From: Diadema antillarum
Taxonomy: Eukaryota
Assembly: GCF_040938485.1 (NCBI RefSeq)
Contig: NW_027271164.1
Span: 2,080,064-2,144,063 of the forward strand
DNA length: 64,000 nt
Reading direction: 5' to 3'
Shown in pieces: positions 18,977 to 61,785 of the stretch. The notes below the pieces were generated by a model that had not been told where the DNA came from, searched no databases, and saw nothing but the letters and a program-made list of their open reading frames with translations. The position numbers and the translations under genes are program-made. Every line of letters starts with the position of its first letter. Positions within the stretch are counted from its first letter, which is position 1.

Positions 18977-19007
<31 letters not shown>

Positions 19008-22163: not shown

Positions 22164-22325
22164 CAGAAATACATCGACATCGATTGTTTTGTTGATGAAG
22201 GTGTCTTCGCTGAATCGCACGGTTTTCCCCACAATGATTCCCTCAGCGACATTCACTGCCGGGCTGCTGGCCCGACTTACCCCGAGGAAGGCACCGACCG
22301 CCAGAACAAAAAGTTGAAGTTTCAT
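22164..22325 (-). CDS. CESL-1 exon 1
   Basis: ATG at 22325. Peptide MKLQLFVLAVGAFLGVSRASSPAVNVAEG...DVDVFL. Donor GTAAGG. Confidence 0.8.
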
Positions 22326-24960: not shown

Positions 24961-25551
24961 CCTTCGAGACAAGATATTACTTTAGACTTTGCTCTGACTT
25001 CCTCGTCTCTTTAAATTCGACAACACCGACTCACTTCTCAGCTCAGATTGGTTGTAGTAGACAGCTGAACTCATTTCCTTCCCGAAGTCATTTGTAAATT
25101 TCAATGCTTTTTAGAAATATGGTAGAATACTGATCCATTTTCGTTGGAACTTTCAAAGTTTATAATCTCTTTCCTGTTTACAACAATAACTGTTAACCGT
25201 TGAAAGTATTCCTTCTCCTCTTGATATACCACTAATCCAAATCCAGCTTTGGACATCAAAGACATAATTATGGAATTATACAAGTACCTTCAAACAACCG
25301 TTTCACCAATGCTTCTCGTTGCGTAGTGTTGCTCAAGAAAGCCTATAATTATTTGTAATGACATAAGTAAAGCTTATTCAATCTTCGAGATTCAATTTTC
25401 AAGATTTCATCTGACGATACTGGTATACCGCATGTTAAAGTGAGTTTTGGACCGTGTATTCAATAAGTAATATCAAACATTATATAGTCTGACCATAGAA
25501 TCAGATGTGAAATGTTTCTTTGAAATGACTGAAACTGACGTCTAGACTTAC

Positions 25552-25733
25552 TTGCATGAGTGAGAAGAGTGGGCATGTAGGAGTTCCAGAAGTGGCACTG
25601 CCTGGCTCGAACAGCTCTACCGACTGCAAAGCCAGGAGCCAGCTCCTTGTAGTTGAGTTCAGGGATGGAGTAACTAGGCCAGAGATCCTCCCCGACTCCA
25701 GGTTCAGCATCAACGCTTGGCTTGCTTGGATCC
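25552..25733 (-). CDS. CESL-2 exon 9
   Basis: Peptide DPSKPSVDAEPGVGEDLWPSYSIPELNYKELAPGFAVGRAVRARQCHFWNSYMPTLLTHA. Donor GTAAGT. Confidence 0.75.
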
Positions 25734-26409
25734 CTGAATGCATATCATTTCACAACTGAGATTTTGGACTGGTAGAGGATGGTGAAAATGATGGTGATAA
25801 TGATAATAATGATAATGATGAGCAGCCTTTACATAGTACTATATGTCTGTAAAGAACATTAAAAGGCACCTGGCTCCCACTTTATATGTCACGTATTATT
25901 CACAAAGTTGCTGGATGAAACTTTACAATATTATGTAGAATGCATATCGCGTATTTCATAGCGTTTTACTACTGTGATAATTAGCATGGCTCCATTCCAG
26001 TCCATATTTAGTCAAGAATGTAGAACTTGCCATCCGCAAAGCACACGCCTTTTTTCCAGTTATTTTAATGCTTTTTTTGCCATATCGATATTGGCAAGAA
26101 AAAATTTGAAGTAAAGTCAACTGCTCAATGACATAGTTCTATTTGGACTGTGATCCCCTCTGTTATGTTCATGAGGTTACATGTACATCATGTTAGAAAT
26201 TATTTCAAGTGATCCTCAACTCCTTCCACAATGTTCTTCGTGTTCTCTTCTGTACGTACTCGTACATCATCTACGATAAATTTTACATATGTCATGGAAT
26301 ATCTGCCATGTGGTATCAGTACAGATTTCTATATTGGTTCCATGTTTTCTTATTCTATCATAGTTTAAGGTAACAAACAAAACCAAATCAAAGCTGTCAT
26401 TGTGCTTAC

Positions 26410-26604
26410 CCAGATTTTGCGAAGTTTGTCCAGAACTCCATAAATTTAACGGAGAGGGCGTTTTCCTCGTCGGTCATGTTATGTCCTTTGATGTGGTAGA
26501 GCTCATCTATGAAGGGGATTCCCCAGACAAAGGTGATGTCCTCAGCATGTCCCGCTCCAAGCCAGGGTGTCGTGGGGGCCAAACCCTGGTATTCCACATA
26601 GCTC
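26410..26604 (-). CDS. CESL-2 exon 8
   Basis: Peptide SYVEYQGLAPTTPWLGAGHAEDITFVWGIPFIDELYHIKGHNMTDEENALSVKFMEFWTNFAKSG. Donor GTAAGC. Confidence 0.8.
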
Positions 26605-27563
26605 CTGTACATCATAGTCGACAAATACACAGAAAAGAAACCCACTTTACACTGGCAGGGGCTGTTAGTAAGTATACACATGAACAATTTTTTTTTTTTA
26701 TTGGTATTCCAGGGACCTGTCTTATGAAGAGTTATAATTGATTAGGCCCTATAAAGTTGATTTATATGGTAAGTCTATGGCAGCCTTTGTAGTAAGGAAA
26801 TTTATAATCGGTTATATCTTTTGATAAAACGGAACCGGAATCAACAATCAACTAAATCAAAGTGGGTTTTATAGTGATTGACACACATGCTTCGCGGGGC
26901 AACGCGTAGTATTTGGTTATTCTGCTTGTCGGTCTCACCCGATTGGACGAAGAATTCAAGAGTTTTACTCGTTGGTTTTCCCTTGAATGGTAATGATCAA
27001 AATAACAATAATGACAACAATACGTTGCTTTTATAGAGTATCCCCGGATATTACCGCCATTGCGTATCAATGCTCTATTGCTATAATGCTAAAAATGTAA
27101 GTTATCGGAAGCAACATAATGGCAGGTAAACTGAAATATATAACTTTGCGCGAAGTGATAGGGAGGTACAGTTGTGTCAGTGCAAGAGTTTTTCCACTTG
27201 ATCCTTTTCAATGTTTCTCTTTAGTTTGATCAGGATCATCATTACGATAATAAAAGTGTGGAAAAATATTTTCACTGTCTTTAGAATGAAGCAGGCAAGG
27301 TAGCAAATAGCATAGTTTGGAAAGTAGATTTACTCAACACATGGATACTGAAATCAGAGAAGGACCAAGTTCTGCGCAATACACCATGCATAATTATGCG
27401 ATCATCATCCTCTTTTCAATTAAAGATGTGTTGATATTTCTGTGCAGTAAATTTCGATGTGCGATCACAATCCATGTTTTAATCTAAAAATTGGTGAATA
27501 TTTTGCTCTTATAGGAATGTATAAGTCTGGCATGAGATATACACGGTCATGGGCCTGGCTAAC

Positions 27564-28018
27564 CTTGTTGGTGCGTATGGCATGTAGTACTTATAAACAG
27601 TCCCTCCTGCTTGATAGTGCGCCCTCACGAGTGCATCAGTTGGACAGTTGAAAGCGAAATCGCCGAAAAATGCTACCAGGGCATCAAAATACGAGGCGTT
27701 GGTGTTATCGTAAGTCGCCCAGTGTGTGTACTCCTGATCCACTGAATTGAGTACTACTTCATCCGGAAGCACGTATGAAGTGAGATAAGTATGCATGCTG
27801 GCAAGGTATACTTCTCGGCTGACAGGGGGCGGTGTTGGGCTTCCAATATATTCCGCGGCTGCCTGGGTATAAAGAAATAGCGTCCCCTCGTCCTTGTTAA
27901 AGCCGGTAAGAATTGGAATCTTCGCAAAGTCTCCCTTCCGGTAGAGGTTTAACGGAGAATCCTCAAGAAAGACGCCATCCAGGGTGACAGGGTAAACTGA
28001 ATAATGGTCCGAGTAAAT
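27564..28018 (-). CDS. CESL-2 exon 7
   Basis: Peptide IYSDHYSVYPVTLDGVFLEDSPLNLYRKGDFAKIPILTGFNKDEGTLFLY...NCPTDALVRAHYQAGGTVYKYYMPYAPT. Donor GTTAGC. Confidence 0.75.
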
Positions 28019-28832
28019 CTTAAAGAGAAATGATAATGTTCGAGAAAATAAGTCATTCATTGATTTCATCTGTAAATATGCGTAGCAGTTATCAAATCAA
28101 AATGCTTGCCTGGAAAAGACGATTATTTAAGCATTTAAGATTGAGTTTTGACTTGCTCAAGTTCGACAAAATTCGTTATAAAACCATCGTTATGACGATA
28201 GTAAGCGTTAAAGAGATTTTAAACGATCACAGTGCAACACGCCTCCAACTTTCCTTCGGGTTTGAACCTCTTACAAAGGAGCCTGAAGGAAACTGTTGTT
28301 ATTGTTGTTGTTTTGTTGCTGACTTTATCAAATTATTACAAAAGTAAATGTAATACAAGGATGATGCCATTACAGATGACCATAAATATTGGGTGTATAT
28401 GCGCGCAAGGTAGAGTGGTGGGAATACAAATAGTAAGTCATTCAGACCCCAGTCAAGTACTGCATGTATCTGGTTATTAAACCGAACAAAATATTGTTAA
28501 AACTCTATAATGATGCATTGAGACGACAGCTATGTGCTATTTATCCGTTACTTTTATTGTATTTTTTACGAGGCAAGGAAGGCTTGGTTCACAAGACATA
28601 TATGAATTCATTGATGTAGTTCATGAACTTCGAGAACTTGAATCTTTTGACTGTCAAGTCACATATGCATTGTGTAATATAGGTATACCTACACAGGGGG
28701 AGTTCTGCTTGAAAAGACCACAGTACGAGGGAGTGAAACGAATTAATTATATCAAGTCATACATGTAGTTCATAAAGCAATGCAGTCTGTAGGTATCATA
28801 AACCTTGTACACTCATGATTGATAAGAGTTAC

Positions 28833-29000
28833 CTGATCAGCTGTGTTACTCAGGTTACGGGCATCTACTCCCCTCAGACACTCGACAAGGATAGATGATG
28901 TAGACACGTCACAGCCCAACGCTAGGCCCAGATCTCGGGATAGCCGTCGTTCTCTGTCCGGGTCATCTTCGAAGGCCCAGCTACTGAACACATTCCCACT
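28833..29000 (-). CDS. CESL-2 exon 6
   Basis: Peptide SGNVFSSWAFEDDPDRERRLSRDLGLALGCDVSTSSILVECLRGVDARNLSNTADQ. Donor GTAACT. Confidence 0.75.
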
Positions 29001-29566
29001 CTACAGCCAACGATAGCCAATATTAAAGGGATAGTGTGATGTGGTAAAATGAAGTTGGATCGACTACGTCAGCTGGAATATTTGTGTGTGTGTGTGTGTG
29101 TTTGTGTGTTTTGTTCAAAGTAATTTTATCGTGAAAAAGAGCGGCCTGATGTTGAATGAAATTCAAACAGAGAATATCATTAAAAAGTGTGCGTATATGT
29201 GTGTGCAAATGACACTAACACTGTGAAACATTTTATCAGTTTAACAGAAACAGAAATTAATGCAATCAACAATAGTATGTATCACATCACACGTTTTCTA
29301 TCGCTATATGAGAATCAATTTTGTTATTATTATTATTTTTAGAATGGTTTATTAGGTAAAAGTTTGCAAAATCGTAGCCCGAAGGCTAAAATACATTGCA
29401 CTGACAACTAGATACATTGAACTGTCATACACTACATCCACATTAAAAATCACAATCAGTCATAAAATATATTGCAAAAAAGAAAAATTACCACATAATA
29501 CTACACAGAAAAAAACCAAATCTATTCATACATCCCAATTGTATAAGATTATATGAATATATTTCA

Positions 29567-29959
<393 letters not shown>

Positions 29960-30028
29960 TTATCTTTAAATAGGTAGGCTTGCAATATATCAATGCTTTA
30001 CGTAATTAGTTGTCTTTTTTTTTCTTAC

Positions 30029-30106
30029 CTTCAATGTTTTCATAGATCCATTTAAGGGCTGCTGCTTGGTCGAGCATACCAACATTTCCCCGAGCTGAGT
30101 CATCCT
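30029..30106 (-). CDS. CESL-2 exon 4
   Basis: Peptide DDSARGNVGMLDQAAALKWIYENIE. Donor GTAAGA. Confidence 0.75.
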
Positions 30107-30143
30107 CTGGAAATAAAAATGCATTTCATTGTTTGTTATACAC

Positions 30144-30270
30144 AAAAACAAACAAACAAACAAACTAAAAATACAACCCCCCAAAAAAGACAATACCCAG
30201 AACAAAAAACAAAACAAAACAAAATAACAACAGCGACAAACAAACAAAAAAAGATGACAAACAACAACTA
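30144..30270. repeat. (CAAA)n-rich low-complexity tract, in CESL-2 intron 3
   Basis: Direct reading. Confidence 0.85.
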
Positions 30271-30664
30271 CCACATTGCCTCAATCAGTTGTCTTCGTTT
30301 TCCTAGTCTCCTAGTTTTAGTATAAAAGAACGAGAAGTGAAAATCACATGTCTGTAATCACAGAATTCTACAAATTGCCTATCGCTTAGGAATAATGTCT
30401 GGCAACTTCGGAGAACAATAATGAGCAATGTCCCTACTAACTCCACGGTCCTCTGAATGACGTTACTGAATGCGAAATAAGCTACCAAACAATGATTAGT
30501 GGGAAAAAATCTTCAGGAAGTGACAAATTGTATAGACGTCAGAAAAAGACATACTATCGAGTATTAAAGTCATCGCTTTACCATAGAGATAACAGCTCAT
30601 CTTACTGAAATTGGGGTTACAGGTTTTAGTTCCCATTCAATTGGCATGATATATTCATACTAAC

Positions 30665-30824
30665 CAGTGGAAAACTGTCCAAAGATCGCTAGTCTGTAGT
30701 TGATTGCTACAACAATGACGTCACCTACAACAGCCAATGGGACGCCGTAATGGTCATAGATCATTGCTGAGCCAGAGTTGAACGACCCCCCGTGAATCCA
30801 CACCATAACTGCCATGCCTGAAGT
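30665..30824 (-). CDS. CESL-2 exon 3
   Basis: Peptide [53 protein letters not shown]. The donor is GTTAGT, which is non-consensus. Confidence 0.7.
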
Positions 30825-31294
30825 CTTGAGTAAAACAATGATATGAATGCCATCAAAAAACAGAGAACCACTGTATACTTCACATACTGTATTTTTTTTC
30901 AAGACATGCGTTTTTGTACTTATGCATTAACTTATTTTCTATTGACATTCGGTACCTGAGGGGCCCACATTCTACAAGCTCTGTCTTCTTAGTGGTCCCT
31001 CAATTATTCGAAGTTTGCGTATTGCTATCTTATTTTCATCACTTTGATCTTTATGGCAATGTATAAGTAGTATAAGGTTCCATATTTCATACTCTCCTCA
31101 GTTTACTTTGTTTTGCTTATGAAACCTGATTCTCTGTTACCAAGAAAGGGAAATTTCTATGTTCTTTTCGAAAAATGAAATATAGCTTGAATTGAATTGA
31201 ATTGAATTGAATTGAATTGAATTAAAAAGAAATGCTTACATAATAATAATTCTATATCATTGTTACCATTGATTGTTCTTTCTTCTCTACATAC

Positions 31295-31468
31295 CCTTGA
31301 TGTCGGCGCGTAGACGTTCAGATAGAGGCAATCCTCGGAGGTAAAAAAGTCAAAAGTGTTGGTCTGCTCACAAGCAGGAGAAAACTCCGTGGCATTCCTT
31401 TCCCCTGACCATGACGTCATGTTTGTGGGCGGGGCAAATCGTATGGGCGGGGCCGCGTAAGGTACACC
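31295..31468 (-). CDS. CESL-2 exon 2
   Basis: Peptide [58 protein letters not shown]. Donor GTATGT. Confidence 0.75.
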
Positions 31469-33303
31469 CTGTAGGCATGATTAGCATCTTTCAGTCAGAA
31501 ACATTAAAAACACACCTAATCAATATTAGATATGTACAAATATTACTCCTCTGAACTTCGATATAACGTCCAATTTTCCTGTTATATACAGGTTGTACAT
31601 GCCTTATTCGAGTCATAAATCATTGATGATAGCAATCTTGATGTACGGCAGTCGGTCGCAGGCAAGATAATAGGGAGCTTTAGATTTTAGACGCGCGGAC
31701 GTTCAAAGGAAAAAAAACCATGATCTGAGCTTGCGCAGTAGCGCGCGTAAAGTCAATCTATTTTTAGCTTGCGTCGCCTGAGTTGTTTACTACGCGTAGT
31801 GGGCTATTTTCACGTCCGCACAGTTTGCGACGTAGAGAGCTTTTTCATGCACTGATCATATGGGGGCGCGATTTTATTTTTTATACGTTGCGTCCCAGCG
31901 TAATCTAAAGCTACTTTTCCACATGACGCAGGGAGAGGAGAACGTCCAGCGCAAGCGTCGGCTCAAACGTCCGCGCGTCAAAATCTAAAGCTCCCTAATA
32001 TGTGCACTGTGCTGGAATTAAGTTGTCGTTCAAAGTTTAATCAAATGGATTGTAAAAGAGTCCTTCAATACGCCATCAAGGGACATGACACCAAACGAAA
32101 CAAGTGTATAGATAATTGGTCTAAATTGATGCGGATTGTGTTGTTTTAGCCCATGGGCTCTATTTCTCGGAAACGTAACAACAAAATAATTTGTCATGAC
32201 CATGTCGTATTGACATTATTGATGTTCCTCTAGTTTGCCAGTAAACACAATTAACTTGCACAATTAACCAGAACTTACGACATGACCATGTAGGAAGAAA
32301 AAAAAAATGTCGCAAGACTTGACCTTAAAACATTTAAGTAGTGATATTATGTCCTTTGGCGTGGACATATCCCTTGTTCATATTTTAATTCTCGCGAGGT
32401 AGATTTTCTTATCGAGCATTACTGACAGGATATAGGATGAATTCCGGTCAGCCATGTCAATCCCCAAATCCAAATGAAAGTAAACCCTGGTTTGGTCTAC
32501 TACTTGAGTGAAAATGATAAGGATGTGATACAGTGGACTCCCGTTATAACATAGTCCTCGGGACAGGCAGTTTTTTTTTTCGTTATATCGAAATTTCGTT
32601 ACAACCGACCAGACAAACAATAAACACACACACACAGGGGATAATGTTACGGCATGAATTTTTACTTCGTGTTCAACTGAATTTCGTTATAACAGTGTTT
32701 ATTATATCCGGAGTGCGCTATAGTCACATGACCAAAACGAAACGGTGAATTCAAGATGCCATGCTTTTTCATATTCGACAACCAAGCTATTTCAACTTTA
32801 TCGATATCATGTGAACTACGTATTTCTTAAAGTGACTACTCTTTGTCTCTGTCCTTAACATCAAGTATTTTACAGAAAGGCAATCGACGAGAGAATGTCG
32901 AAGCCGTGAATTCTAGGACTCAATCCTGTGGAAAGAGGATTTTCTTTTGTCTCTAAATGTACCATAGTAACTGCATAATCGCTTCTTAACTATGATTATT
33001 GTTGTTGTAATCCCTGCTGCATAGACATGCATACTGTATATTATATCATTATTTCCCTTTTATATCTTTGTTTATGCAAGTCAAACGACTCTGGGTTGAA
33101 TTTACTTTGTATATTCCCTACATGTTCATGATTATGTAACTTATGTGTATTGATTTGCAGAAAATAAAGTATCTATCAATATCAATATCAATTTCAACTT
33201 TACAAAACGTCAAAGAGAGTAGCTATAATATTGTTCCTTTGTTGTCAAACAAAATGATTCGCGCCGTGATCGAGGAAAGAGAAACCCGAACATAAGGTCT
33301 TAC

Positions 33304-33465
33304 CAGAAACAAGTCGACATCTCGGGTCTTGTTGATGAACCTGTTTTCACTGAAAGTCACGGTCTTTCCTACCAGAATTCCTTCGTTGACGGTGACTCGT
33401 GGACCCTCAGCACTTGCCAGGCCCACTGTGATAATCATAACCAGCACAATTCGACGAAGCGCCAT
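33304..33465 (-). CDS. CESL-2 exon 1
   Basis: ATG at 33465. Peptide MALRRIVLVMIITVGLASAEGPRVTVNEGILVGKTVTFSENRFINKTRDVDLFL. Donor GTAAGA. Confidence 0.75.
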
Positions 33466-34166: not shown

Positions 34167-36049
34167 GTTTTATTTTCCCCATATAGTTATGTTTAGTTCT
34201 CTTTTCATTGAACCAAGGAAACATTATCGTGATTATGTACATAATATATCCAGCAGGATGTTGAAAAAATACGAGGTCAGTGTGAAATGGATGTCCTTTT
34301 CCAATAACAAAAAAACAACAACAACACACACACACACACACACATACACATACACACAAAATCTTTCCGCCGCATTTCCAGCTCAGACTCTTTCCCCACA
34401 TGAAACAGGACAACTGTCCATATGATCTCTTTAATACGTGCTTCAGGCAAGCATAAATAAGTCTAGGTGACATTGTGATTCTTTAGCTGTGATGTTGACA
34501 GGATAAAGCCAAATATTGAAACTGGGTAAAAGTTCAAAATTTTCAATCTTTTCTCTGACGCATATATTGTAGCTGAATAAATATTCAAGTCCAAACGAGT
34601 CCAAGTGAAACTCGCGTTCAGTGAGTTGCATTTCCCTATATTTGAAACGTTCTCTTCAAACAGTGCAGTTCTGACGATGCTTCACACAGATATTGGTTTA
34701 CATTAGCATAAGCTCTCCTTTATTTGCGGGGAATTTCTGTATTGGATTAAATAAAGGATGAAAGAAATAAGAGTTGTATAAAAGAATGACTGAATGATGA
34801 TCGTCTCTTGTATGCGATGAATTTTGATCTGATATTGGCTGTAACTTGTGCTGTGAAATCACACCAATCACACCAGACAGATTTACTCTTATAGCCCAGA
34901 GATACACAATAACAGCGCACATTCGACTCTAAACTGAACACCATAGAAACAATACATAGTCTATGATATCAAGGGTCTCATCCATACATGAATGTAAAAA
35001 GGGTCTAATCCTTGGAATGAATTGACAAACTCCTCTTGTTCTTGGTATTCGAGGCAAAATAACCTAAATTACGAAAGAATATGATATACAGATTACGTCT
35101 ATTCAAACATATGTATCAATGCTTCCATGCTTATATTATTTGCATTTGTATTATAAATATCAGAAGAAAGTACATGGATATAGCAGCATTGCGTTTATCT
35201 TTAAATACCCGATTTTCATTCCCCCTCTCTCTTTTTCCATGTATTATTGCAAACGATTATTGATAAACATGTCTTATTTTTTGTTAGTATTTAGCCACTT
35301 AACAAAACAGACATGATTTTTTTTTCGTTATCGTGAATATGTTGTAAAGGAAGATATTCACGTCAATGGCTAAGAAATCATGACAGTCAAAGGTAGGAAA
35401 CTTTAAAAATGATACACAAAGACAACATCAAGGAGAGTTTCCCTTTTATTCGCTCCACTTAGGTCACTGCTAAATAATGTCACTAAAACTGCTTGACAGA
35501 GCAATACTGCATACGCAAAAGAGAAAGAACAGCGATAGGTAGAGAAAATATGTGAAAATTGAAGGCATTACGACACTTTACACCACATAAACTGGTGGCT
35601 GGGATTATGTACAGTCTTCTGTCACAACTTCAATTAACTGAAACCTTTACAGCTCTACTTTTATATTCATATTGTGTTACCATCACCAAAATGATGGATA
35701 AATTGTAACTAGCCTTGTAATTTTGAACTGTACCAGGAAAATGACATTATCGTATGATGTGTAAATTAGTGTTAGGTATATCTAGACGTGTACCCAAAAT
35801 TCGAAACCAAATTACATCCTAAACTGCTACAAAAAGTGATGACATTAGTTCAAGGACATGCAGCTGTAAAGGGATTCCAATATTATTCTAGTATATAGTA
35901 TCGATGTAATTGTGATAGCTTCATCATGAATTAATCAAACAAAACATAAACGACAAGACGACGAAACAATGAAGTACGCATACTAAGCCATGCTCGAGCT
36001 ATCACGTGACATTTTCTTTTGACAGGTTTGAGATTCGTGACAAAGAAGG

Positions 36050-36165
36050 TTAATTGCAGGTAGGTTCATTCTTGTATTCCTCAAACGCCTGCTGCCATGC
36101 TGTCATCTCAGTCTTCCAGTCATCATAAATTTCTCGCCATTCCTTCTCAGTGTCACTAATGTCGT
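36050..36165 (-). CDS. CESL-3 exon 10 (terminal)
   Basis: Peptide DDISDTEKEWREIYDDWKTEMTAWQQAFEEYKNEPTCN followed by a stop. Confidence 0.75.
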
Positions 36166-36764
36166 CTGGATAAAATGAACGTAAAACCAAGGTTTTTAAT
36201 CTGAGTATTTTCCTCTGTACAAAAATTCAGTACATGTAGTCGTATATATATTAATTTCTGTCCAGCCATTGAAAGACTGAAAATAGTGGTAAAAATATTG
36301 TATCATACGTGTTATAATGAATGATTTGACTGAGCGTAGCGCCAACAGTCTTACAATGTACACGAACAATAAAAGGAAGATCCGAGCGGTGTTGATTTTT
36401 CTGTTAATAAACGAAATGGTCAACCTTTTACAAGTAGGTCCTAAATATTTAAAACAAAAGTAGAGAGGGTATGTTTATTACTTCAGAAGACCAACTTTAA
36501 AATGGAATGAGCGTCTGCTCCTGACACCATGCCATATTAAGCATCTCATCATTCCAAGCATAGAATCCTTGTTATTTTGGTGTTTAATATCTATTCCTCC
36601 ACGTAAATACAACATTAGATATGTCTAGATCTGTGTATTATTCTTTATATAGACGGATATATCATGATCTATCACCTTTAAAATTAAACTGTGAGAGAAA
36701 GCCTGACCCTTAATGCATGTGCTTTGAGATGTAGCTAAACACAAAGACGAGGCATGAATGGTAC

Positions 36765-36946
36765 CTGTGAAGGCAGCGAGGGAAGGGATGTACTGGTTCC
36801 AGAAATGACACTGCCTGGCTCTGACAGCCCTCCCCGTGGGTAGCCCTACTGTCATCTCCTTGTATGTGAGGTCAGGAATGGTGTACTCTGGCCAGGCGTA
36901 CTGTCCTTCCCATGGGTCTGAATCCATGCTCGGCTTACTGGGATTT
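36765..36946 (-). CDS. CESL-3 exon 9
   Basis: Peptide NPSKPSMDSDPWEGQYAWPEYTIPDLTYKEMTVGLPTGRAVRARQCHFWNQYIPSLAAFT. Donor GTACCA. Confidence 0.7.
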
Positions 36947-37279
36947 CTTTGTAGAAGGAAACAGAAGGAAAACGGAAATCACTTTTTGCTTCTGTTTGTA
37001 ATGAAAACGTTATAAACCGAGCCTGAAGATTTATGTACCATTAGTTCACAACAGCAGGAAATCAAAGAATTTCAGTAGAACAATTCAAAAGTTGAAAGAA
37101 GTCCCAATATACATGGAAAATCTTGAACTGCTATAATCTTCCAAACATAGCCTGCATTAGTAAAACATATACATTTGAAAAAAAAAATATCATTGCCGCT
37201 TTGGGTGACATTTTACAATAAGTAATCTAATTGTAATCTGAATTAGTCTTACAGAAGACAAAGAACAAGGCGACCTTAC

Positions 37280-37474
37280 CCCGACTTTGCAAAGTTCGTC
37301 CAAAATTCCATGAACTTAACAGAGAGGGCGTTTTCATCTGCCGTCATGTTATGGCCCTTGATGTGATAAAGTTCGTCAATAAATGGAATACCCCATACGA
37401 ACGTCAGATCTTCTGAATGGGTTGCCCCAAGCCATGGAGTCGAGGGAACGATGTCTCCATACTGGAAATAGCTC
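37280..37474 (-). CDS. CESL-3 exon 8
   Basis: Peptide SYFQYGDIVPSTPWLGATHSEDLTFVWGIPFIDELYHIKGHNMTADENALSVKFMEFWTNFAKSG. Donor GTAAGG. Confidence 0.8.
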
Positions 37475-38415
37475 CTTAAAAAAGAAAACAGAAAAGGAGA
37501 GAAAGACTTGCACATATAGTATATAGGTGAAACTTGTCATAAACTGAACTGATAACTGTGGATCAAAAGTTATTTGGAAATTAAACTTATCCAAAATAGT
37601 AACGGTAATAATGATGATAATGTGTTCTCGTATTCATCATGAAATTAAAAAAAAAAACTACTATGGCTTCCAATTCCTGATACTTGCTAAACAAGCTCGG
37701 CGCATGTCTTTTCCATATCCATAAAATTAACGAGATGTACAAGATGATGATGATGACAGTAATGGCATTTAGAAAGTGCGGTATCGAGGTTGTTACAATT
37801 ACGAAGTGGGATTGGTAGAGTTCCACAGACGTAGTGCAACAGAAGAGAAGGCTCTACCCTCATAGACTTTTAGGCGGGTACTGGACACATGGAGAGTCAA
37901 TTTAGGGTAGGCCAACATAAAACAACAACAACAAACAAACAAAATGATGATGATAATAATAATAATACGTTGTAGTGTATACTTTTATAGCGCAACAGTC
38001 CATCAAAGAGATGCTCATGGCGCTTTTAGTCTTAAGGTTAGGAGAAGAAAAAAAAAGATGAACAAGAAGAAAAAGGAATTATGTGACATCTTCACTTTTT
38101 TGTTTCCTACAACATATTGAACAGATATGTTTTTAGAGATGTTTTAAATGATTCCACAGAGGATGATTGGCGAACAGTGACAGGGATATCTTTCCAAACT
38201 TTTGGTCCAATGCGGGAGAAAGAACGAGTTCACCATGAATGCTTAACCTTAGGTATCTGAAATGAAAAGTAAGTAGATGGTCGAAGTCTGCAAAGAGGGT
38301 TATAACAATATAAAGAATTCTGGATATACTCGGGTGCAGTCATAGGTAATTCAATACTGTCAAACTATAGGCAAATGAATATGTTACTGGAAAGAAAAGA
38401 AAAGTAAATGCTCAC

Positions 38416-38858
38416 TTGGTTGGTTGATGAGTCATGAAATATTGAAAGACAGGATAGCCAGCCTCGGCGTGCTCCCTGACCACCAGATCGGTCGGGCACC
38501 CGAAGTCCATGTCTCCGGACACGTCCACTATGGATCGGAAGTAGTCGGCCAAGGGGTCATCAGCCACAGTCCAGTCCACGTACTCATGTGTCGTAGCATC
38601 GACAATGATGGCGTCGTCCATTTCGACCCATGCGAGTGTGTTTTGAAGTATCTCATCAAACACGGTTCGATTGAGGTGCGGATGTTCCTCAGCTCCTGCG
38701 TAGGAGGGATAGGCGAAGTACACGAACAAGGCGGCTTTGTCCTTGTTGGATCCAACGAGGATTGGAACATCGGGAAAGTCTCCCTTGTTGTACATAGAGC
38801 GAGGGCTCTCCTGCAGAAACACCCCGTCTAGAATCACGGGATATCGGTCTGAATGAAT
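38416..38858 (-). CDS. CESL-3 exon 7 (catalytic Glu replaced: NKDKA)
   Basis: Peptide IHSDRYPVILDGVFLQESPRSMYNKGDFPDVPILVGSNKDKAALFVYF...GCPTDLVVREHAEAGYPVFQYFMTHQPT. Donor GTGAGC. Confidence 0.8.
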
Positions 38859-39418
38859 CTGGAAATGCCAAACGTTACAATTAGAAATTTATCTCGGGGT
38901 TTGGACAGTATCTCTAAGTGTAAGCAAACCTCCCACCTAACGTGTGCTGTAGGAGGAGAAAGAGATAAGTAAGAACACAGACATTCTTTCCCCATCATTT
39001 ACTCTCTTTTTTTTTGGGGGGGGGGGGGGTAATGCAAGAATTCTAATTCGCAGTCAAAATAAGAGTGGATTAAAATAATTCAAAGCGAAAAAGGCTATTT
39101 CTAAATCACAGTTTGCCGCATAACTTCCTTAAGTATTGGTCCAGGGCTCAGCAGTCAAGATATCAAGATGATATAAGTGAAAATGTTCTTGTTCACTATG
39201 TCGGTAAGACGTCCAATTGACTTTGCATCAGAATCGCAACATTTTCACATCAAGCAACTATGACCTAAATGCCGTTACGCAATACCGGTCTGTTTTTCAA
39301 AGGTTGTACGATCAAAAGTGCTGAATTCGGATCATTTTTACTACAGTGAAATGGAAAAATTAGTAAATGAAAGTAAGCAATGAGAAATTCGTGACTTTGA
39401 TCTCATTTTTTTTCTTAC

Positions 39419-39586
39419 CCTATCTCCAACTTCGCGTAGTTGAAGGGGATCCTTGGTTCTAAGGCACGACACCAATAGTTCTGAGGTGGACGTGTTACAC
39501 TCCATTGCTTCACCCACTTCTCTGGCTAACTCTCTCTCCAATTCAGGGTCATCTCTAAAGGCCCAGTTAGTCAGGGAAGTCCCACT
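39419..39586 (-). CDS. CESL-3 exon 6
   Basis: Peptide SGTSLTNWAFRDDPELERELAREVGEAMECNTSTSELLVSCLRTKDPLQLREVGDR. Donor GTAAGA. Confidence 0.75.
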
Positions 39587-39699
39587 CTGCACACAGAGAC
39601 AAGAAAGACGAAAACTACAACCATATTCACACAGTCTCTGATGTGTAAATATCAAGATATGGAAAAAAAAAAGGTTGACTATAAACGCTAAATACTTCT

Positions 39700-41670
39700 A
39701 AAAGTGGACATCTGTGAGTGACAGAATTCATCATATCCAATACTCAGTACTTCCCATATGATAGACAGCAGTGTGAAAATAAATCAGTAGCATGGATTCA
39801 TCAGCATGGTGATATGTTTCAAAGACCTCTTAATAGTGGCAGCATAATTCTGAAAATGCTGAAAATAGCGAAAGTTAATCCTGTACATAAAAAAGATGAT
39901 CCTCATGAAATTAGTAATCATCGTCCTATTTCTTTATTGCCTAGTATATCCAAAATCTTAGAAAAAATTGTTTATGATAGACTTCTTAAATTTATTAATA
40001 AGTATGATTTACTTATTCCCAATCAATATGGTTTCAGAAAAAATTATTCAACTGATTTAGCACTAATACAAATTTATGACAAAATTACGAGTGCTTTTGC
40101 AAACAAAGAACATGTTGCAGGTATATTTTGTGATTTGAGTAAAGCATTCGATACTCTTGATCATTCTATTTTACTCACCAAACTTAGTCATTATGGTATT
40201 CGAGGACAAGCACTTTTATGGCTTACAGATTATCTAACTAATAGAAGACAATATGTTATTTTTAATGGTTGTGAATCTGACCCCCTTTTAATTAAATGTG
40301 GTGTTCCTCAAGGCTCAATTCTAGGCCCATTATTATTCCTTCTTTATGTTAATGATATCATAAATACATCCTCTCTTCTCTCTTTTGTTCTATTTGCTGA
40401 TGATACGAATATATTTTATTCTCATAAAGATCTTAAGATTTTAAATGACACTTTAAATATTGAAATTAGTAAAGTATCAAATTGGTTTAAGTCTAATAAA
40501 CTTTCTTTGAATATAAAAAAGACTCATTTTATTCATTTCAAACTTCATTCTCATAATGAAGATACGTTGATACATATTAACATTGATGATATCCCATTAG
40601 AAAAGAAAATGAATTCAAAATTTCTAGGAGTATATATAGATGAAAGTTTGACTTGGAATGAGCATTTACATCATGTTACAACGTGTATTTCTAGAAATAT
40701 AGGGATAATTTCCAAGCTGAAGTTCTTTCTTCCTCGTTCAACTTTATTTCTATTATATAATTCCTTAATTCTCCCATATATAAGTTATTGCAATGTTGTA
40801 TGGGGTACTTGCGGCTCTACCAAAATAAATTCTATATTTAAATTACAAAAGAAAGTTATACGTATTTGTACAGGATCGCATTTTCCGGCTCATACTGATT
40901 CTTTATTTCATGAGCTTAAAACATTGAAGGTTTTTGATTTGAATATTATTCAAGTAGCAGTAATTATGTTCAAATATATACATCATCAACTTCCATCATC
41001 GTTTGATAACATGTTTAGGTTCAATACTTCTGTCCATTCGTACCCTACTCGTATATGTAGAAATTTCCACCTTTTGAATCCCAAATTGTTAGTGACACAT
41101 AAATCTACAAGATATTCGGGTCCGGATATTTGGAATAATCTCCCGGATAATATAAAGTCTTGTTCAAGTATTTATTCTTTGAAAGCTTCACTTAAACGAT
41201 ATTTGATACAATTATATTCTCCAAACCAATTGAGCTAACAAATATTTATAGTATAGATTGTCATCTTATTGTCAATCTCTATTTTCTTCCTTCAACTGCA
41301 TCTTGCACTCTCACCTGCAACTGCACTGCACTCACCTGATCACCTTCCTCCAAGAGAGTTATGTCGTTGGATAGTCATTTTATGAGGCCTCCATCCATTT
41401 CAAGCTTAATCGCTTATGATGGTGGTCTCCTGCATTCAATTATCTCTGTTGTTTACTGAAAAATACTGTATATTTTATTTTATGTTTCTGTGTATCTACA
41501 TTGCTCAATGCAATCACCTATGTGAATCTATTTATGTACTGTTATCGATTTATTTCACTGCACTTGTTATTCTTTGTCTTTGTACTTTTTGAAGTTTGCA
41601 TTCAAATTGCATCTGATTGAATGCAGAAATAAAAGCAAACAAACAAACAAACAAACAAATAATTCTCAAA
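39700..41670 (+). mobile_element. 5'-truncated non-LTR retrotransposon (CR1/L2-like LINE). The RT ORF is intact, there is no endonuclease domain, and the 3' end carries a (CAAA)n tail. It is antisense within CESL-3 intron 5.
   Basis: RT motifs present: RPISLLPSISKILEKIV, FRKNYSTDLAL, CDLSKAFDTLDHSILLTKL, GVPQGSILGPLLFLLYVNDI and FADDTNIF. The (CAAA)n run is at about 41632-41668. Confidence 0.8.
39718..41238 (+). CDS. LINE ORF2 reverse transcriptase, 506 aa, uninterrupted
   Basis: Taken from the six-frame track. All RT blocks are in frame, including the FADD (YXDD-type) box. Confidence 0.8.
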   Translation: MTEFIISNTQYFPYDRQQCENKSVAWIHQHGDMFQRPLNSGSIILKMLKIAKVNPVHKKDDPHEISNHRPISLLPSISKILEKIVYDRLLKFINKYDLLIPNQYGFRKNYSTDLALIQIYDKITSAFANKEHVAGIFCDLSKAFDTLDHSILLTKLSHYGIRGQALLWLTDYLTNRRQYVIFNGCESDPLLIKCGVPQGSILGPLLFLLYVNDIINTSSLLSFVLFADDTNIFYSHKDLKILNDTLNIEISKVSNWFKSNKLSLNIKKTHFIHFKLHSHNEDTLIHINIDDIPLEKKMNSKFLGVYIDESLTWNEHLHHVTTCISRNIGIISKLKFFLPRSTLFLLYNSLILPYISYCNVVWGTCGSTKINSIFKLQKKVIRICTGSHFPAHTDSLFHELKTLKVFDLNIIQVAVIMFKYIHHQLPSSFDNMFRFNTSVHSYPTRICRNFHLLNPKLLVTHKSTRYSGPDIWNNLPDNIKSCSSIYSLKASLKRYLIQLYSPNQLS

Positions 41671-42010
41671 CCAGTTACATTTTGGAGCGGTGCTTTTTTC
41701 TTTCTTCCTCATGCATTCGAACATTATCAAGTATCAAATTTTACGATGTCGTGCAATGGGCTATAACTTCCCTGCGTAAAACAAATGTCTCATTCGATAG
41801 AATGATGAATAAACCAAGGCATGCGAGATAAGTACACAGAAAAGACACTAATTAGAAATATATGTTCCTCAGAAGAAAAGAAAAGAGAAAGGAAATTTTT
41901 AAGAAGTAAGGAAGAAACAACTTGGGAAGACGCTATGGTTATAGAGACAGCATCTCAAATAGACAATTTCAAGTCATGGAATAGATGCCCCTAACCTATC
42001 TACCATATAC

Positions 42011-42129
42011 CTGCATGATGATTTTGCTGATATAAGGCCTACTCAGCTTGGAGAGGAGGAGGAGGTTGACACAAGCTGCACCCGCGCTCTGACCGAAGAG
42101 AGTTATCTGGTCCTTGTCTCCTCCAAAGG
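42011..42129 (-). CDS. CESL-3 exon 5 (nucleophile elbow, variant GQSAGA)
   Basis: Peptide [40 protein letters not shown]. Donor GTATAT. Confidence 0.8.
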
Positions 42130-42290
42130 CTGACAGCAGGCATGGAAAAAAAAAATCAGCATTTTTTAAAATCATCTGGTACAATATCTTACTTTTTGCA
42201 CTGATATCAATTTCGACAGAAGAATCATTTCAACAAAACAAATGGAACTAGAATAACATAAAATGGTTTTCTTTGTTTAGTAGCCATATA

Positions 42291-42291
<1 letters not shown>

Positions 42292-42347
<56 letters not shown>

Positions 42348-42360
42348 CATATATACATAT
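42292..42360. repeat. (AT)n microsatellite, in CESL-3 intron 4
   Basis: Direct reading. Confidence 0.9.
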
Positions 42361-42602
42361 ATTATGTACTATAAATCTACGGTATTCCTTTTTCAAAATT
42401 ACTTTGGAAATTCCTCAATATGACGACAGCCTGCGTTGCACTGAATTATGTGAGTTGAATCAAAACAGTACCTAGATATCTCTTCAAACATGCGTACGAA
42501 CCAAAGCAATAATTTATAGAGTCGTTACAATGAACTGAACTGAACTGAACTGAGCTGAACAATAGATTACAACATGCAAGACCGTTTCCAAGGAATTGTT
42601 AC

Positions 42603-42680
42603 CTTCGATATTATTGTAGACCCACTCCAGCGCTGCCACCTGATCCAACATGGCGAAATTTCCTGGTGCAACATCATCCA
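42603..42680 (-). CDS. CESL-3 exon 4
   Basis: Peptide DDVAPGNFAMLDQVAALEWVYNNIE. Donor GTAACA. Confidence 0.7.
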
Positions 42681-43145
42681 CTGAAGACGGATGTAATAGA
42701 TTCAGTAGGGTTATGAAAATGAATTACTGCGCAGTATCACCATCACTACATCAGCAGCGAAGGAAACTTTTAAATAAATTTGAACTAATCCATTTTTCAA
42801 TAATGATAGAGGATGTCAGTGTTTTCTCATTAAACCGTTATTGTAGACGGTTTAGTCTGGATACGTAACTATTGTTCACATTTTGTGTATTAAACAATAC
42901 TTAACAACGATTATACAGATTCAAAATTTTACAGTGGTTGTTTCTGTCCCTAACTTACACTTTAGAACTATTCTAAAGCACTAATGTTGGGTTTTTGTTT
43001 CTTCTGCAAATGGTAGATTATGCCTTTAACAACATCACTTTCGTAAGACTCATTATGTTTTGTGACGTCGTCTTGCATTTCTTCAGTCGATACTGATATA
43101 AGAATTGTGACTCTTACAAGAACTGTAATCGTACGAGAGTCTTAC

Positions 43146-43305
43146 TTGTAGTAAATTGTCCAAAGATCGATAATCGGTAGTTAACAGTCACGATAATGAC
43201 GTCACCGACAGCAGCTAATGGAACGCCGTAAAAGTCATACGTCATAGCAGTTCCTGTTCTGATTCCTCCTCCATGAATCCATACCATCACAGGAACAGCA
43301 GATGA
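43146..43305 (-). CDS. CESL-3 exon 3
   Basis: Peptide [53 protein letters not shown]. Donor GTAAGA. Confidence 0.75.
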
Positions 43306-43779
43306 CTGCAACATAATGTACACGGACAGAGGGTGAAAGAGAAAGAGAGCAAGCAAGAAAACAACATTTAAACCTATATTTTACAGCTTCGGGGAAGTGC
43401 ATGCTCTTACCAGGGAGGTGGAAGAGAAGCATTTTCTACCTCGCTGCTCTCACACAGTTTTTACAAGCCTTACCTTTAATTTTTTCATGAGGAGCATCCT
43501 CGCAGGTTGGTAATGGTAAAGCGCGTGACAATAATGTTGGTTAGACGTTTATGAAATTGGCTTTTCAGTTTTCATCTATTTTTTTTCTTTCGTAGGATCA
43601 CGTATATATGAAAATGGTCGGAGTAACCATGGAGCTGTGGCTCCATGGAGTAACCAATTAATTGCTCGTGCATTGTATACTGTGGGAATTTTATCCATGA
43701 GTCACACAGCCCACGAGCTCGACACTAGGTAAACAAGGCCCACAAGTCCGATACTCATTACATTATTTGGCTTAATGTA

Positions 43780-44375
43780 GCAAGGTCGGTCTCGTGGGCC
43801 TTGAATGGTTTGCCTATAGTGTCAGACTCATGGGCCTTTTTTATCTAGTGTCGGACACGTGGGCCTTGGTTGTCTACTGTCTGACTCATGGGCCCTATTT
43901 GCCTCGCGTCAAGCTCATGGACCATTTTTCATTGTCGAGCCCGTGGGCCGTAATGACTCGTGGGTATCGGGCTCGTGGGATGACTCCAAATCAAAGCCTA
44001 GATTTTTCCTAAAATATCGAGGCGTCAAGCTCATGGACCATTTTTCATTGTCGATTTCGTGGGCCGTAATGACACGTGGGTATCGGGCTCGTGGGATGAC
44101 TCAGAATCAAAGGCTAGATTTTTCCTAAAATATCGAGGCGTCAAGCTCATGGACCATTTTTCATTGTCGATTTCGTGGGCCGTAATGACTCGTGGGTATC
44201 GGGCTCGTGGGATGACTCCAAATCAAAGCCTAGATTTTTCCTAAAATATCGAGACGTCAAGCTCATGGACCATTTTTCATTGTCGATTTCGTGGGCCGTA
44301 ATGACACGTGGGTATCGGGCTCGTGGGATGACTCCAAATCAAAGCCTAGATTTTTCCTAAAATATCGAGGCGTCA
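43780..44375. repeat. Minisatellite with a 116-bp unit in about 5 copies, in CESL-3 intron 2
   Basis: The repeated unit is ggccgtaatgacNcgtgggtatcgggctcgtgggatgactcNNaatcaaagNctagatttttcctaaaatatcgagNcgtcaagctcatggaccatttttcattgtcgatttcgtg. The track ORFs 43859, 44059 and 44175 give identical peptides. Confidence 0.85.
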
Positions 44376-44452
44376 TATCTTTAAAATGAAGAGAAAATGG
44401 AATTAGACAATCCAGCCAGAGACATCTCGTGAGAGGGACAGATATTACTCAC

Positions 44453-44629
44453 CTTGTTACTCGGGGAGTACACGTTCAGATAGAGACAGTCCTCTGACAT
44501 GTAGGGGATTTCAGTGTTGTTAACCTGCAGGCAGGCTGGGGCAAACTCGGTGGCGTTTCTCTCGCCCGTCCATGGAGTCTTGCTCACTGGCTTCGCGAAA
44601 CGCTCCGGTGGATCTGCGTAGGGAATTCC
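44453..44629 (-). CDS. CESL-3 exon 2
   Basis: Peptide [59 protein letters not shown]. Donor GTGAGT. Confidence 0.8.
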
Positions 44630-44787
44630 CTACAGGCACCAACAGAAATTGTCGTCAATAATTTTAGCTCATGTATCATGCTCACTGATAGAAGTAACAG
44701 CAAGATTTCACGAGCCAAATGATATACATATCAACAGCATTGATATTATCATCACGAAGTGTCATTGAATGCAATTGTTAGTATCAA

Positions 44788-45170
44788 AGGGACTGTACAG
44801 TATACTGGTTGAGGTGAGGATTCAGGTTTATAACATTCCTAAGTGAGATAATGAGAAACCTCTTCTGAAATATGAAAGAGTATGTAATTCTAAGAAGGAT
44901 TCAATGTTTACTTGATAAAAATCGGTTTTCAAATGGCTGAGATATCCAAAAAAGTCGAAAAGGCGACAGGCCATGCCTTTTACCAGGATCTCTTTATTTC
45001 ACCTTGTTTTTGGATATCTCAGCCATTTCACAACCGATTTTCATCAAATAAACTTTTGATACCCCTTAGAATTGCATGCTCTTTGACATCTCTTAGAGTG
45101 GTTTCTGAATATCTTGCAAAACGTTAAAAGCTAAATCTTCACCTCAACCAGAACTGTACACACCCTTTAA
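44788..45170. mobile_element. MITE-like palindromic element, family M1, in CESL-3 intron 1. It is the first of a tandem pair.
   Basis: The 5' end gggactgtacagtatactggttgaggtgagga is the reverse complement of the 3' end tcacctcaaccagaactgtacacaccc. Confidence 0.6.
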
Positions 45171-45411
45171 CATGTCTCGTAATTAAATAAGGGCAGAAAA
45201 CACGAGTTCAAATAAAATATTAAGTAGAAAAGTGCGGAGGTGTGCACCTTCTCGAGCGCGTCTCTTTAATGAATGTATGATACATCTACTCAAAAGTTCT
45301 GCCTTATAACTTTATACTTTTGTTTCGTCTTTAATCTATAATGTTTACCCATTTAATCGTGTGATTTTAATGCTTTTTTTTCCCATACTGACATATTTTT
45401 TCAAGCACTTT

Positions 45412-45748
45412 AAAGGGGCTGTACAGTACTGGCTGAGGTGGGGATTCATGTTTTTTTACATTTCTAAGTGAGATAATGAGAAACCTCATATGAAATATGA
45501 AAGAGCATGGCTGAGATATTCCAAAAAGTAAAAGACTACTAGTATACAGGCCACGCCTTTTATTAGGATCTCTTTGTTTCACCTTGTTTTGGTATCTCGG
45601 CCATTTCAAAACCGATTTTCATCAAATAAACTTTTGATGCCCCTTAGAATTGCATGCTCGTTGCCATCTCATAGAGTGGTTTCTGAATATCTCGCAAAAT
45701 GTTAAAAGCTAAATCCTCGCCTCGACCAGAACTGTACACACCCTTTAA
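45412..45748. mobile_element. MITE-like palindromic element, family M1, second of the tandem pair
   Basis: It runs ggggctgtacagtactggctgaggtgggga ... ctcgaccagaactgtacacaccctttaa. Confidence 0.6.
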
Positions 45749-45878
45749 AACCATCTCCAAGTTGTTAAATGGGAGTCATTACAAGCAGCTTATTAGTATT
45801 TTATATTTAGCCTAAAGGATAAGAGAACCGAGCATTACTTGTAAAAGAATGCGTTCAGATATAGCTCATTGGACTCAC

Positions 45879-46040
45879 CAGAAATACATCGACATCGACC
45901 GTCTTGTTGATGTAAGTGCTTTCGCTGAACCTCACCATTTCCCCTACCAGGATTCCCTCAGTGACATTCACTTTGGGATCAGCGGACTCACCCTTCCCAA
46001 TGAGGGCAATACTTATCAGCACCACAAAGCCCAATTTCAT
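45879..46040 (-). CDS. CESL-3 exon 1
   Basis: ATG at 46040. Peptide MKLGFVVLISIALIGKGESADPKVNVTEGILVGEMVRFSESTYINKTVDVDVFL. Donor GTGAGT. Confidence 0.8.
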
Positions 46041-53778: not shown

Positions 53779-53894
53779 TTAACTGCAGGTAGGTTCATTC
53801 TTGTATTCCTCGAACGCCTGCTGCCATGCTGTCATCTCAGTCTTCCAGTCATCATAACTTTCCCGCCATTCCTTCTCAATGTCACTAATGTCGT
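53779..53894 (-). CDS. CESL-4 exon 10 (terminal)
   Basis: Peptide DDISDIEKEWRESYDDWKTEMTAWQQAFEEYKNEPTCS followed by a stop. Confidence 0.75.
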
Positions 53895-54270
53895 CTGGAA
53901 AGAGAGTGAGACAGAATGAAGAATCGTTGTAATTATCACAATTAGCGCTCTTTCTTTTTAGAGTTCAAACTTACATACTGCTCGTCAGGCCGTGCAGACC
54001 ATTGGCAAATCTCAAAAACGTTTTGAAGTTGCTTTTCTGCCGAGGAATTTCTTATAAATCTCATATTTTAGTGAAGTTCTGTGATTGATGACATCTATAC
54101 CCAATTTCATAAAAAAACGAAGATGGCACATTCACACTCTTTACCTTGGAAGAAGATATGGCGTTGAAAAAAAAAAATTAAAAAGCCGAAGACAAATTAT
54201 AAGGTTAATTGCTGAGCGATTTATATCAAACATAAAGTATAACGAAGTGATTATGCTCTCGAAAAAATAC

Positions 54271-54452
54271 CTGTAAAAGCAACGAGGGATGGGAAGTACT
54301 GGTTCCAGAAATGGCACTGCCTGGCTCTGACAGCCCTCCCTGTTGGCAATCCTATGGCTATCTCCTTGTATGTGAGTTCAGGGATCGTGTACTCTGGCCA
54401 GGTGTACTGTCCTTCCCACGGGTCTGAATCCATGCTCGGCTTACTGGGATTT
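54271..54452 (-). CDS. CESL-4 exon 9
   Basis: Peptide NPSKPSMDSDPWEGQYTWPEYTIPELTYKEIAIGLPTGRAVRARQCHFWNQYFPSLVAFT. Donor GTATTT. Confidence 0.75.

Positions 54453-61620: not shown

Positions 61621-61785
<165 letters not shown>

Follow-up and report, generated by a model that had tools for sequence, protein, structure and literature searches.

A lysine at the catalytic-acid position in one copy of a cholinesterase-like gene from a tandem array of Diadema antillarum

The CESL-3 gene and its neighbours

We analysed a stretch of 64,000 nucleotides of the sea urchin Diadema antillarum (contig NW_027271164.1 of 2.94 Mb, positions 2,080,064 to 2,144,063; hereafter the window), in which the cholinesterase-like gene CESL-3 (gene C) carries Lys at the position of the catalytic acid. 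The 64-kb window is AT-rich and holds a minus-strand tandem array of cholinesterase-like genes, in the order D-C-B-A. The original prediction for this locus, made from the DNA letters alone, took CESL-3 for a non-catalytic protein of the kind represented by neuroligins, glutactin and thyroglobulin, which may act in binding or sequestration.

CESL-3 extends from the start codon to the stop codon at 36050-46040 on the minus strand and encodes 599 amino acids. Its spliced model reproduces XP_071492981.1 exactly, and the gene is already annotated as 'cholinesterase-like' in RefSeq for Diadema antillarum. It consists of ten exons, all on the minus strand, whose borders are GT-AG throughout, and the open reading frame (ORF) of 1800 nt is intact. 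Exon 1 (45879..46040) provides the start codon and the signal peptide (MKLGFVVLISIALIGKGES...), and exon 2 (44453..44629) contains the GIPYA motif and a short omega loop between Cys87 and Cys102, with no equivalent of Trp86 of acetylcholinesterase (AChE). The oxyanion-hole motif WIHGGG is encoded by exon 3 (43146..43305), which is followed by exon 4 (42603..42680), and the nucleophile elbow FGQSAGA lies in exon 5 (42011..42129). After exon 6 (39419..39586), the acid turn GSNKDKAA is found in exon 7 (38416..38858), for which the limits given in the original prediction match the spliced model exactly, and the catalytic His455 is located in the GATHSED motif of exon 8 (37280..37474). Exon 9 (36765..36946) has its acceptor at 36946, with which the model yields the RefSeq protein as well as SGNPSKPS, a motif of the paralogs. 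Finally, exon 10 (36050..36165) encodes a putative AChE-type T peptide (Trp571, Trp578, Trp585; Cys598) and the stop codon. The reading frame, splice sites, signal peptide and His motif had been described as intact, and all of these features were found again in the spliced gene.

When the protein was compared with Pfam, residues 21-547 matched profile positions 2-515 of the 515 positions of PF00135 (COesterase) with 423.1 bits, against a cutoff of 27. The best matches among solved structures, obtained by phmmer against the PDB, are AChEs, namely 6euc (E=5.5e-93) and human AChE 1f8u (E=3.1e-87). The oxyanion GGG, the cysteine pairs 87/102, 262/273 and 409/547 and a hydrophobic N-terminus are all present, together with eight N-glycosylation sequons. 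No transmembrane segment or accessory domain was found in CESL-3; its Pfam matches are of the COesterase type only, and the protein ends in the putative T peptide 50 residues past the domain.

The other members of the array lie on the same strand. Gene A (CESL-1, 12232-22325), gene B (CESL-2, 24452-33465) and gene D (CESL-4, 53779 to beyond 63945) gave spliced models that are exactly identical to XP_071492941.1, XP_071492942.1 and XP_071492944.1, respectively. A further, partial cholinesterase-like gene at 1-3044, with XP_071492955.1 as its best match, ends before its own elbow.

A lysine at the position of the catalytic acid

The nucleophile elbow of CESL-3 reads F-G-Q206-S207-A-G-A, with the codons CAG AGC at 42091-42086, as had been predicted, and Gln206 stands where Glu precedes the nucleophile (E202 in human AChE). 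In the His motif, G-A-T-H455-S-E-D, His455 is encoded by CAT at 37419-37417 and aligns to His447 of human AChE. The acid turn reads G-S-N-K-D-K329-A-A, and the codon of Lys329 is AAA at 38738-38736. In the phmmer alignments the segment 'vgsnkdKaalfvyf' of CESL-3 was placed on 'vgvvkdEgsyflvy' of human AChE and on 'gvnkdEgsffll' of Torpedo AChE. The acid-turn block VGSNKDKAALFVYF lies over the human block VGVVKDEGSYFLVY without gaps and with maximal posterior probability, indicating that Lys329 occupies the position of Glu334 in human AChE and of Glu327 in the Torpedo enzyme. The original prediction had claimed that Lys replaces the catalytic Glu and had proposed an alignment with AChE as a check; the claim is borne out, well beyond what chance would give, and in this alignment Lys329 falls on E334. 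Judged from the gap-free alignment and from the Glu found at the same codon of the ortholog described below, the assignment of the acid position is unambiguous. The paralogs carry the acid motifs that had been reported for them, GFNKDEGT in genes A and B and GFNEDEGT in gene D. Thus the window copy has Lys329 after strand beta7, where the catalytic acid is expected to be Glu or Asp. The structural membership of CESL-3 in the COesterase family holds, but its catalytic competence is doubtful, in the window copy only.

We then aligned 136 homologs and counted the residues at the acid and elbow columns. The acid column contains E in 130, D in 4 and K in 2 sequences, so that it is acidic in 134 of the 136, and Lys at this column is truly exceptional. 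The acid motif had been called universally conserved, which is right in so far as about 99% of the sequences are acidic, but the four Asp and two Lys residues show that it is not universal. The only other Lys-bearing sequence is a homolog from Patiria miniata (P0080, GSNAEKGT), which also lacks the nucleophile Ser (FGEGAGA). Although it shares Lys at the acid with CESL-3, this starfish protein is not an ortholog and is fully triad-less.

The elbow is a different matter. Since Q precedes Ser in 14 of the 136 homologs, and G or V does so in 16 more (8 each), the GQSAGA elbow is not distinctive in the family. The GQSAG form is typical of insect juvenile-hormone esterases (PMC7432913), in agreement with what the original prediction had stated, but it is not diagnostic here. 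CESL-3 shares the motif with these insect enzymes but has no orthology to them; its closest relatives are all echinoderm cholinesterase-like proteins, and Q before Ser has arisen independently here, recurring in several echinoderm and other lineages. Likewise, Ala after the acid is found in 9 of the 136 homologs, several of which have a complete triad. Elsewhere in the window the elbow reads GESAG in gene A and GVSAG in gene D (exon 5, 61624-61742), where the oxyanion motif is HGGS, and XP_071492955.1, the best match of the partial gene, reads GGSAG.

The consequences of Lys329 can be considered in the light of what is known of AChE. The human AChE activity is reportedly lost on replacement of E334 (Shafferman et al. 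1992). In CESL-3, a cation would replace the carboxylate that orients the catalytic His and supports it electrostatically, and Lys should repel the protonated His. E334 has been described as stabilising the transition state electrostatically (PMC6152020). Both acylation and deacylation should be strongly impaired, and Lys329 should severely impair hydrolysis, as far as this can be judged from the sequence. Folding, secretion, glycosylation and T-peptide-mediated oligomerisation would probably be unaffected.

It could be argued that Lys329 is compatible with catalysis, either through a Ser-His dyad or through Asp328 or another acidic side chain that takes over the role of the acid. Asp328 directly precedes Lys329, the residues Ser207 and His455 and the oxyanion hole are intact, and the window copy has gained three private Glu residues (K34E, Q251E and G261E). 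However, an acid column that is acidic in 134 of 136 homologs implies a strong functional need, and Asp328 shows the same conservation in enzymes for which the Glu is needed as well. Moreover, judging from the alignment with AChE, the private Glu gains would be remote from the triad, in the N-terminal part and at the surface. We regard retained catalysis of this kind as highly improbable.

The second copy, the D. setosum ortholog and the status of Lys329

The cluster of CESL-3 at 90% identity adds two proteins, XP_071499733.1 from another contig of D. antillarum (1.26 Mb) and XP_072174380.1 from chromosome OZ188199.1 of Diadema setosum. The D. setosum locus on OZ188199.1 is syntenic with the window and has the same D-C-B-A order. 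Both proteins read GQSAGA, NRDEAA and GATHSED and hence keep Ser, Glu and His, indicating that Lys329 is private to the window copy. The acid codon is GAA in D. setosum and AAA in the window, and the second D. antillarum copy has Glu by its protein sequence. By parsimony with D. setosum as the outgroup, E329K is a single G-to-A transition and one of 12 amino-acid changes that are private to the window copy. Gln206 and Ala330, on the other hand, are common to all three CESL-3 copies, and we therefore regard them as features of the CESL-3 lineage that coexist with a complete triad. The original prediction had counted the loss of Gly after the acid as part of the defect. Ala330 is indeed present, but it is shared with the Glu-bearing orthologs and with the nine homologs mentioned above.

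The private changes A323V, R327K and E329K lie within seven codons of each other (window 38736-38756) and amount to four nucleotide changes. We considered gene conversion as a source of the K329 codon; R327K (AGA to AAG) matches paralog codons, but all paralogs have Glu at 329, and a donor for the Lys codon was rejected. A sequencing or assembly error in a gene that truly has Glu was also considered, since the codon is one base (G to A) away from that of the ortholog and, judged by protein, from that of the other copy. However, the change is a substitution and not a homopolymer-length error, and it is accompanied by 11 other private amino-acid changes, two of which (A323V and R327K) are within six codons of K329. 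Because of these 11 other changes the window haplotype is truly distinct, and we give an error very little credence.

The comparison of the three copies also bears on the proposal that CESL-3 is a dedicated non-catalytic protein with a cholinesterase-like (ChEL) domain, kept by selection for ligand binding or sequestration. Several observations agree with this proposal, including the intact ORF, splice sites, signal peptide, disulfide cysteines and T peptide, a ratio of nonsynonymous to synonymous substitution rates (dN/dS) well below 1, and a residue of opposite charge at the acid position. However, the D. setosum ortholog and the second D. antillarum copy keep Ser, Glu and His, and because they retain the Glu, the loss is not a feature of the lineage and the measured constraint pre-dates or excludes Lys329. 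In addition, CESL-3 has neither a transmembrane segment nor an added domain, and its nearest relatives and best PDB matches are catalytic enzymes. Neuroligins, gliotactin, glutactin, neurotactin and the ChEL domain of thyroglobulin share the COesterase fold without a functional triad (PMC5943944), and these classical members are triad-defective across orthologs (PMC5943944). In the non-catalytic ChEL proteins the triad defect is conserved within the lineage and is accompanied by added domains or membrane anchors, while in CESL-3 the defect is confined to one copy and the Ser is kept. We consider a dedicated non-catalytic protein very unlikely, and the assignment of CESL-3 to the neuroligin, glutactin and thyroglobulin type was not upheld.

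We instead consider it likely that CESL-3 in the window is a missense allele or a young-duplicate variant within a tandem family, probably encoding a hypomorphic or null esterase, and that it does not belong to any established lineage of non-catalytic proteins. The ancestral CESL-3 would have had a complete Ser-Glu-His triad, with Gln directly preceding the Ser and Ala directly following the Glu, a state that both the second copy of D. antillarum and the D. setosum gene still show. The window copy would then have gained Lys at the catalytic acid through the single transition from GAA to AAA.

Whether this copy is an allele or a duplicate depends on how the two D. antillarum contigs are related. 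For every gene of the one D. setosum array, a single counterpart is present on either D. antillarum contig, and another protein of the family (P0009) is recorded identically on two contigs. Because of these one-to-one counterparts and the identical protein, we favour uncollapsed haplotypes; that is, the two copies most likely represent two haplotypes assembled as separate contigs, and E329K would in that case be an allele-specific missense change. A young segmental duplication is the alternative.

Some observations weigh against this simple picture of a recent, inactivating allele. The amino-acid identity between the two contigs is 99.2% for gene A, 99.5% for gene B, 95.6% for gene C and 97.3% for gene D, so that the copies of genes C and D are nearly as far apart from each other as either is from D. 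setosum, and the CESL-3 copies differ by 4.4% compared with 0.5-0.8% for genes A and B. The CESL-3 copies may therefore be old haplotypes or true paralogs, and E329K may be old and not recent. Furthermore, Ser-His dyads in other hydrolases can retain some activity. Given this divergence, the C-D block could represent either a pair of old haplotypes or a duplication of recent date, and its history may differ from that of A-B. The age of E329K is bounded only by the split of the two D. antillarum copies.

With a small chance we also entertain a more specific possibility, in which the Lys329 form belongs to an old, maintained haplotype, either as a balanced polymorphism or as a duplicated pair of catalytic and catalytically dead subunits. 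If this were true, a dead subunit bearing the same T peptide could join active subunits in an oligomer or serve as a stoichiometric scavenger of esters or toxins.

We next consider the selective constraint on the array genes. The dN/dS values were calculated by NG86 on codon alignments of the window genes with their D. setosum orthologs, with bootstrap 95% intervals. The dN/dS of CESL-3 was 0.176 (0.11-0.28), or 0.146 for exons 2-8, and those of genes A, B and D were 0.151 (0.10-0.27), 0.072 (0.04-0.13) and 0.251 (0.12-0.46), respectively. The dS values ranged from 0.06 to 0.19 across these comparisons; that of gene D was unusually low, at 0.064 against 0.13-0.19. A dN/dS well below 1 confirms that CESL-3 evolved under purifying selection, like its neighbours. 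The comparison of paralogs that the original prediction had proposed gave 0.12-0.18 and carries little weight, with dS saturated (1.3 to >2 or undefined). Since dN/dS was measured across Glu-bearing lineages and the E329K branch is not isolated in it, the constraint is uninformative on the Lys form. That CESL-3 does not look like a pseudogene, as had been stated, agrees both with this value of 0.176 and with the absence of any frameshift, premature stop or lost splice site in the window copy. We also examined the possibility that CESL-3 is unusually relaxed. Its protein divergence looked about twice that of its neighbours, but its dN/dS of 0.15-0.18 lies among theirs (0.15 in A, 0.07 in B and 0.25 in D), and relaxation was not kept as a quantitative claim. 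Part of the excess divergence of CESL-3 from D. setosum is supplied by exons 9-10, which appear to be gene-converted.

The other CESL-3 copies carry lesions of their own. First, XP_071499733.1 ends in ...NEPTLSRISNLSKENVT, which corresponds to the window sequence at 36035-36058 minus 15 nt (TGCAATTAACCTTCT). Through this 15-nt deletion the second copy of D. antillarum has lost both Cys598 and its stop codon, and its C-terminus is the read-through sequence of the window. The same copy has G464D in the FVWG motif, at a column that is 92% Gly. Second, exon 1 of the D. setosum gene is broken up by 6.4 kb of inserted DNA directly behind the part encoding the signal peptide (L001 5308-11751, where L001 denotes coordinates of the D. 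setosum locus), and an element with terminal inverted repeats of about 450 bp (L001 6982-7458 and 11245-11727) abuts the breakpoint. Third, the acceptor of intron 6 in D. setosum is AT, not AG (L001 ~18645). The annotated D. setosum model bridges both of the lesions in that gene by means of a substitute first exon without a signal peptide and a micro-exon.

The finding of three different lesions in three CESL-3 copies is suggestive, and it raises the possibility that the CESL-3 lineage is becoming dispensable in Diadema, with E329K as an early degenerative lesion among several that arose independently (incipient pseudogenisation). Each of the three copies is affected at an otherwise conserved feature, the window copy by E329K at a column that is 96% E, and the neighbours A, B and D are without such lesions. 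On the other hand, the dN/dS of CESL-3 (0.15-0.18) does not exceed the values of its neighbours A (0.15) and D (0.25). Between the species, the protein segments encoded by exons 2-5 share 98-100% identity, and none of the three copies has a frameshift or a stop codon. The insertion in D. setosum could also be spliced out by a phase-compatible GT/AG pair, which was found by eye. Because dN/dS does not single out CESL-3, we keep incipient decay as a rival explanation and not as the main conclusion, and we consider it unlikely. CESL-3 is a moderately constrained and possibly dispensable gene.

For the present, we see in the missense form of CESL-3 no more than an ordinary variant of a sea-urchin family whose genes turn over rapidly, and triad-deficient members are common among carboxylesterases and cholinesterases. 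The case shows that, before a non-catalytic lineage is proposed from a striking active-site change in a single assembly copy, its allele or duplicate and the closest ortholog should be consulted. Were the Lys allele to prove widespread and expressed, it would be a natural experiment from which to learn what the triad acid does in a protein of the cholinesterase fold and how the change from enzyme to binding protein begins.

Related proteins and sequence turnover in the array

The closest known systems are the echinoderm cholinesterase-like PF00135 proteins, namely the paralogs A, B and D and cholinesterase 1 of S. purpuratus and Lytechinus, which have the same fold and the same ten-exon structure as CESL-3. 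They share with it the signal peptide, the short omega loop, three disulfide pairs and the putative C-terminal T peptide. CESL-3 is 56-68% identical to the paralogs, and its identity with the S. purpuratus and Lytechinus proteins is about 57%. It differs from these relatives in two residues of its lineage, Gln in front of the Ser and Ala behind the acid, and the window copy alone has Lys at the acid.

Compared with the T form of vertebrate AChE and with butyrylcholinesterase, CESL-3 has the same Ser and His positions, the oxyanion GGG and a putative WAT/T peptide with three Trp and a terminal Cys. This candidate T peptide aligns to those of human and Torpedo, with W571, W578 and W585 in heptad spacing followed by Cys598, and it matches AChE_tetra with 20.6 bits (E=3.6e-4), which is slightly below the gathering score of 25. 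The gorge residues are different. A 12-residue deletion in the omega loop, which corresponds to the Cys69-Cys96 loop of AChE, removes the choline-binding Trp86 from CESL-3; its loop has 14 residues between the cysteines, and the Trp86 region is also gapped in paralogs A and B. When we followed the list of acyl-pocket and peripheral-site residues of AChE (PMC12447245), F295 and F297 of the acyl pocket aligned to His and Asp in CESL-3, and Y72, D74, Y124, W286 and Y341 aligned to Val, Asn, Arg, a gap and Phe, respectively. E202 aligned to Gln and E334 to Lys. The window genes A-D and the sea-urchin family have omega loops of 13-14 residues without Trp86, and their acyl-pocket and peripheral residues are not aromatic; even so, they carry a putative AChE-type T peptide, again with three heptad-spaced Trp and a Cys at the C-terminus. 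The sea-urchin family probably comprises secreted, oligomerising carboxylesterases and not acetylcholine-specific enzymes.

The elbow has a parallel in the engineered E202Q mutant of human AChE (PDB 1F8U), the elbow of which (FGQSAGAA) is identical to that of CESL-3, although the Gln of CESL-3 is natural and common to its orthologs. Glu334 is retained in the mutant, which is reportedly still active, though with altered properties.

We finally describe the insertions and exchanges that were observed in the array. Intron 5 of CESL-3 contains a fragment of a long interspersed nuclear element (LINE) at 39852-41658 on the plus strand, antisense to the gene. The fragment is 1.8 kb long and 5'-truncated, and has a (CAAA)n tail and an open reverse transcriptase (RT) ORF, which matches RVT_1 with E=7.9e-35. 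It is bracketed by 8-bp target-site duplications (ATAATTCT) at 39844-39851 and 41659-41666. Since D. setosum shows an empty site at L001 ~17580-17594, the LINE is a post-speciation insertion, and it has no obvious effect on the CESL-3 ORF. The original prediction had pointed to a recent-looking antisense LINE with an intact RT; the open RT ORF and the empty site agree with that description, but what is left is only a 5'-truncated fragment of 1.8 kb.

Exchange among the tandem paralogs is suggested by the last two exons of CESL-3, for which we compared window 36050-36946 with gene D at 53779-54452. Exon 10 has 95.6% nucleotide identity to gene D, compared with 86.8% to its own D. setosum ortholog, and exon 9 is about equally close to both (89.1% and 89.6%, respectively). 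This pattern suggests gene conversion or unequal exchange among the paralogs. For exons 3, 6 and 8 of CESL-3, the closest paralog is gene A. An orphan last exon of gene B lies at 8871-8981 on the minus strand, between the partial gene and gene A, with 100% amino-acid identity to residues 566-602 of XP_071492942.1, and it is probably a relic of unequal crossing-over.

Two introns of CESL-3 contain further repeats. In intron 2, a 116-bp tandem repeat at 43906-44375 is present in 4.1 copies with 96% identity, where D. setosum has one unit (L001 12982-13100). In intron 1, a repeated element at 44779-45170 and 45584-45749 matches the D. setosum intron (L001 11944-12350) in both orientations, and it looks like a palindromic insert resembling a miniature inverted-repeat transposable element or a short interspersed nuclear element, present twice.

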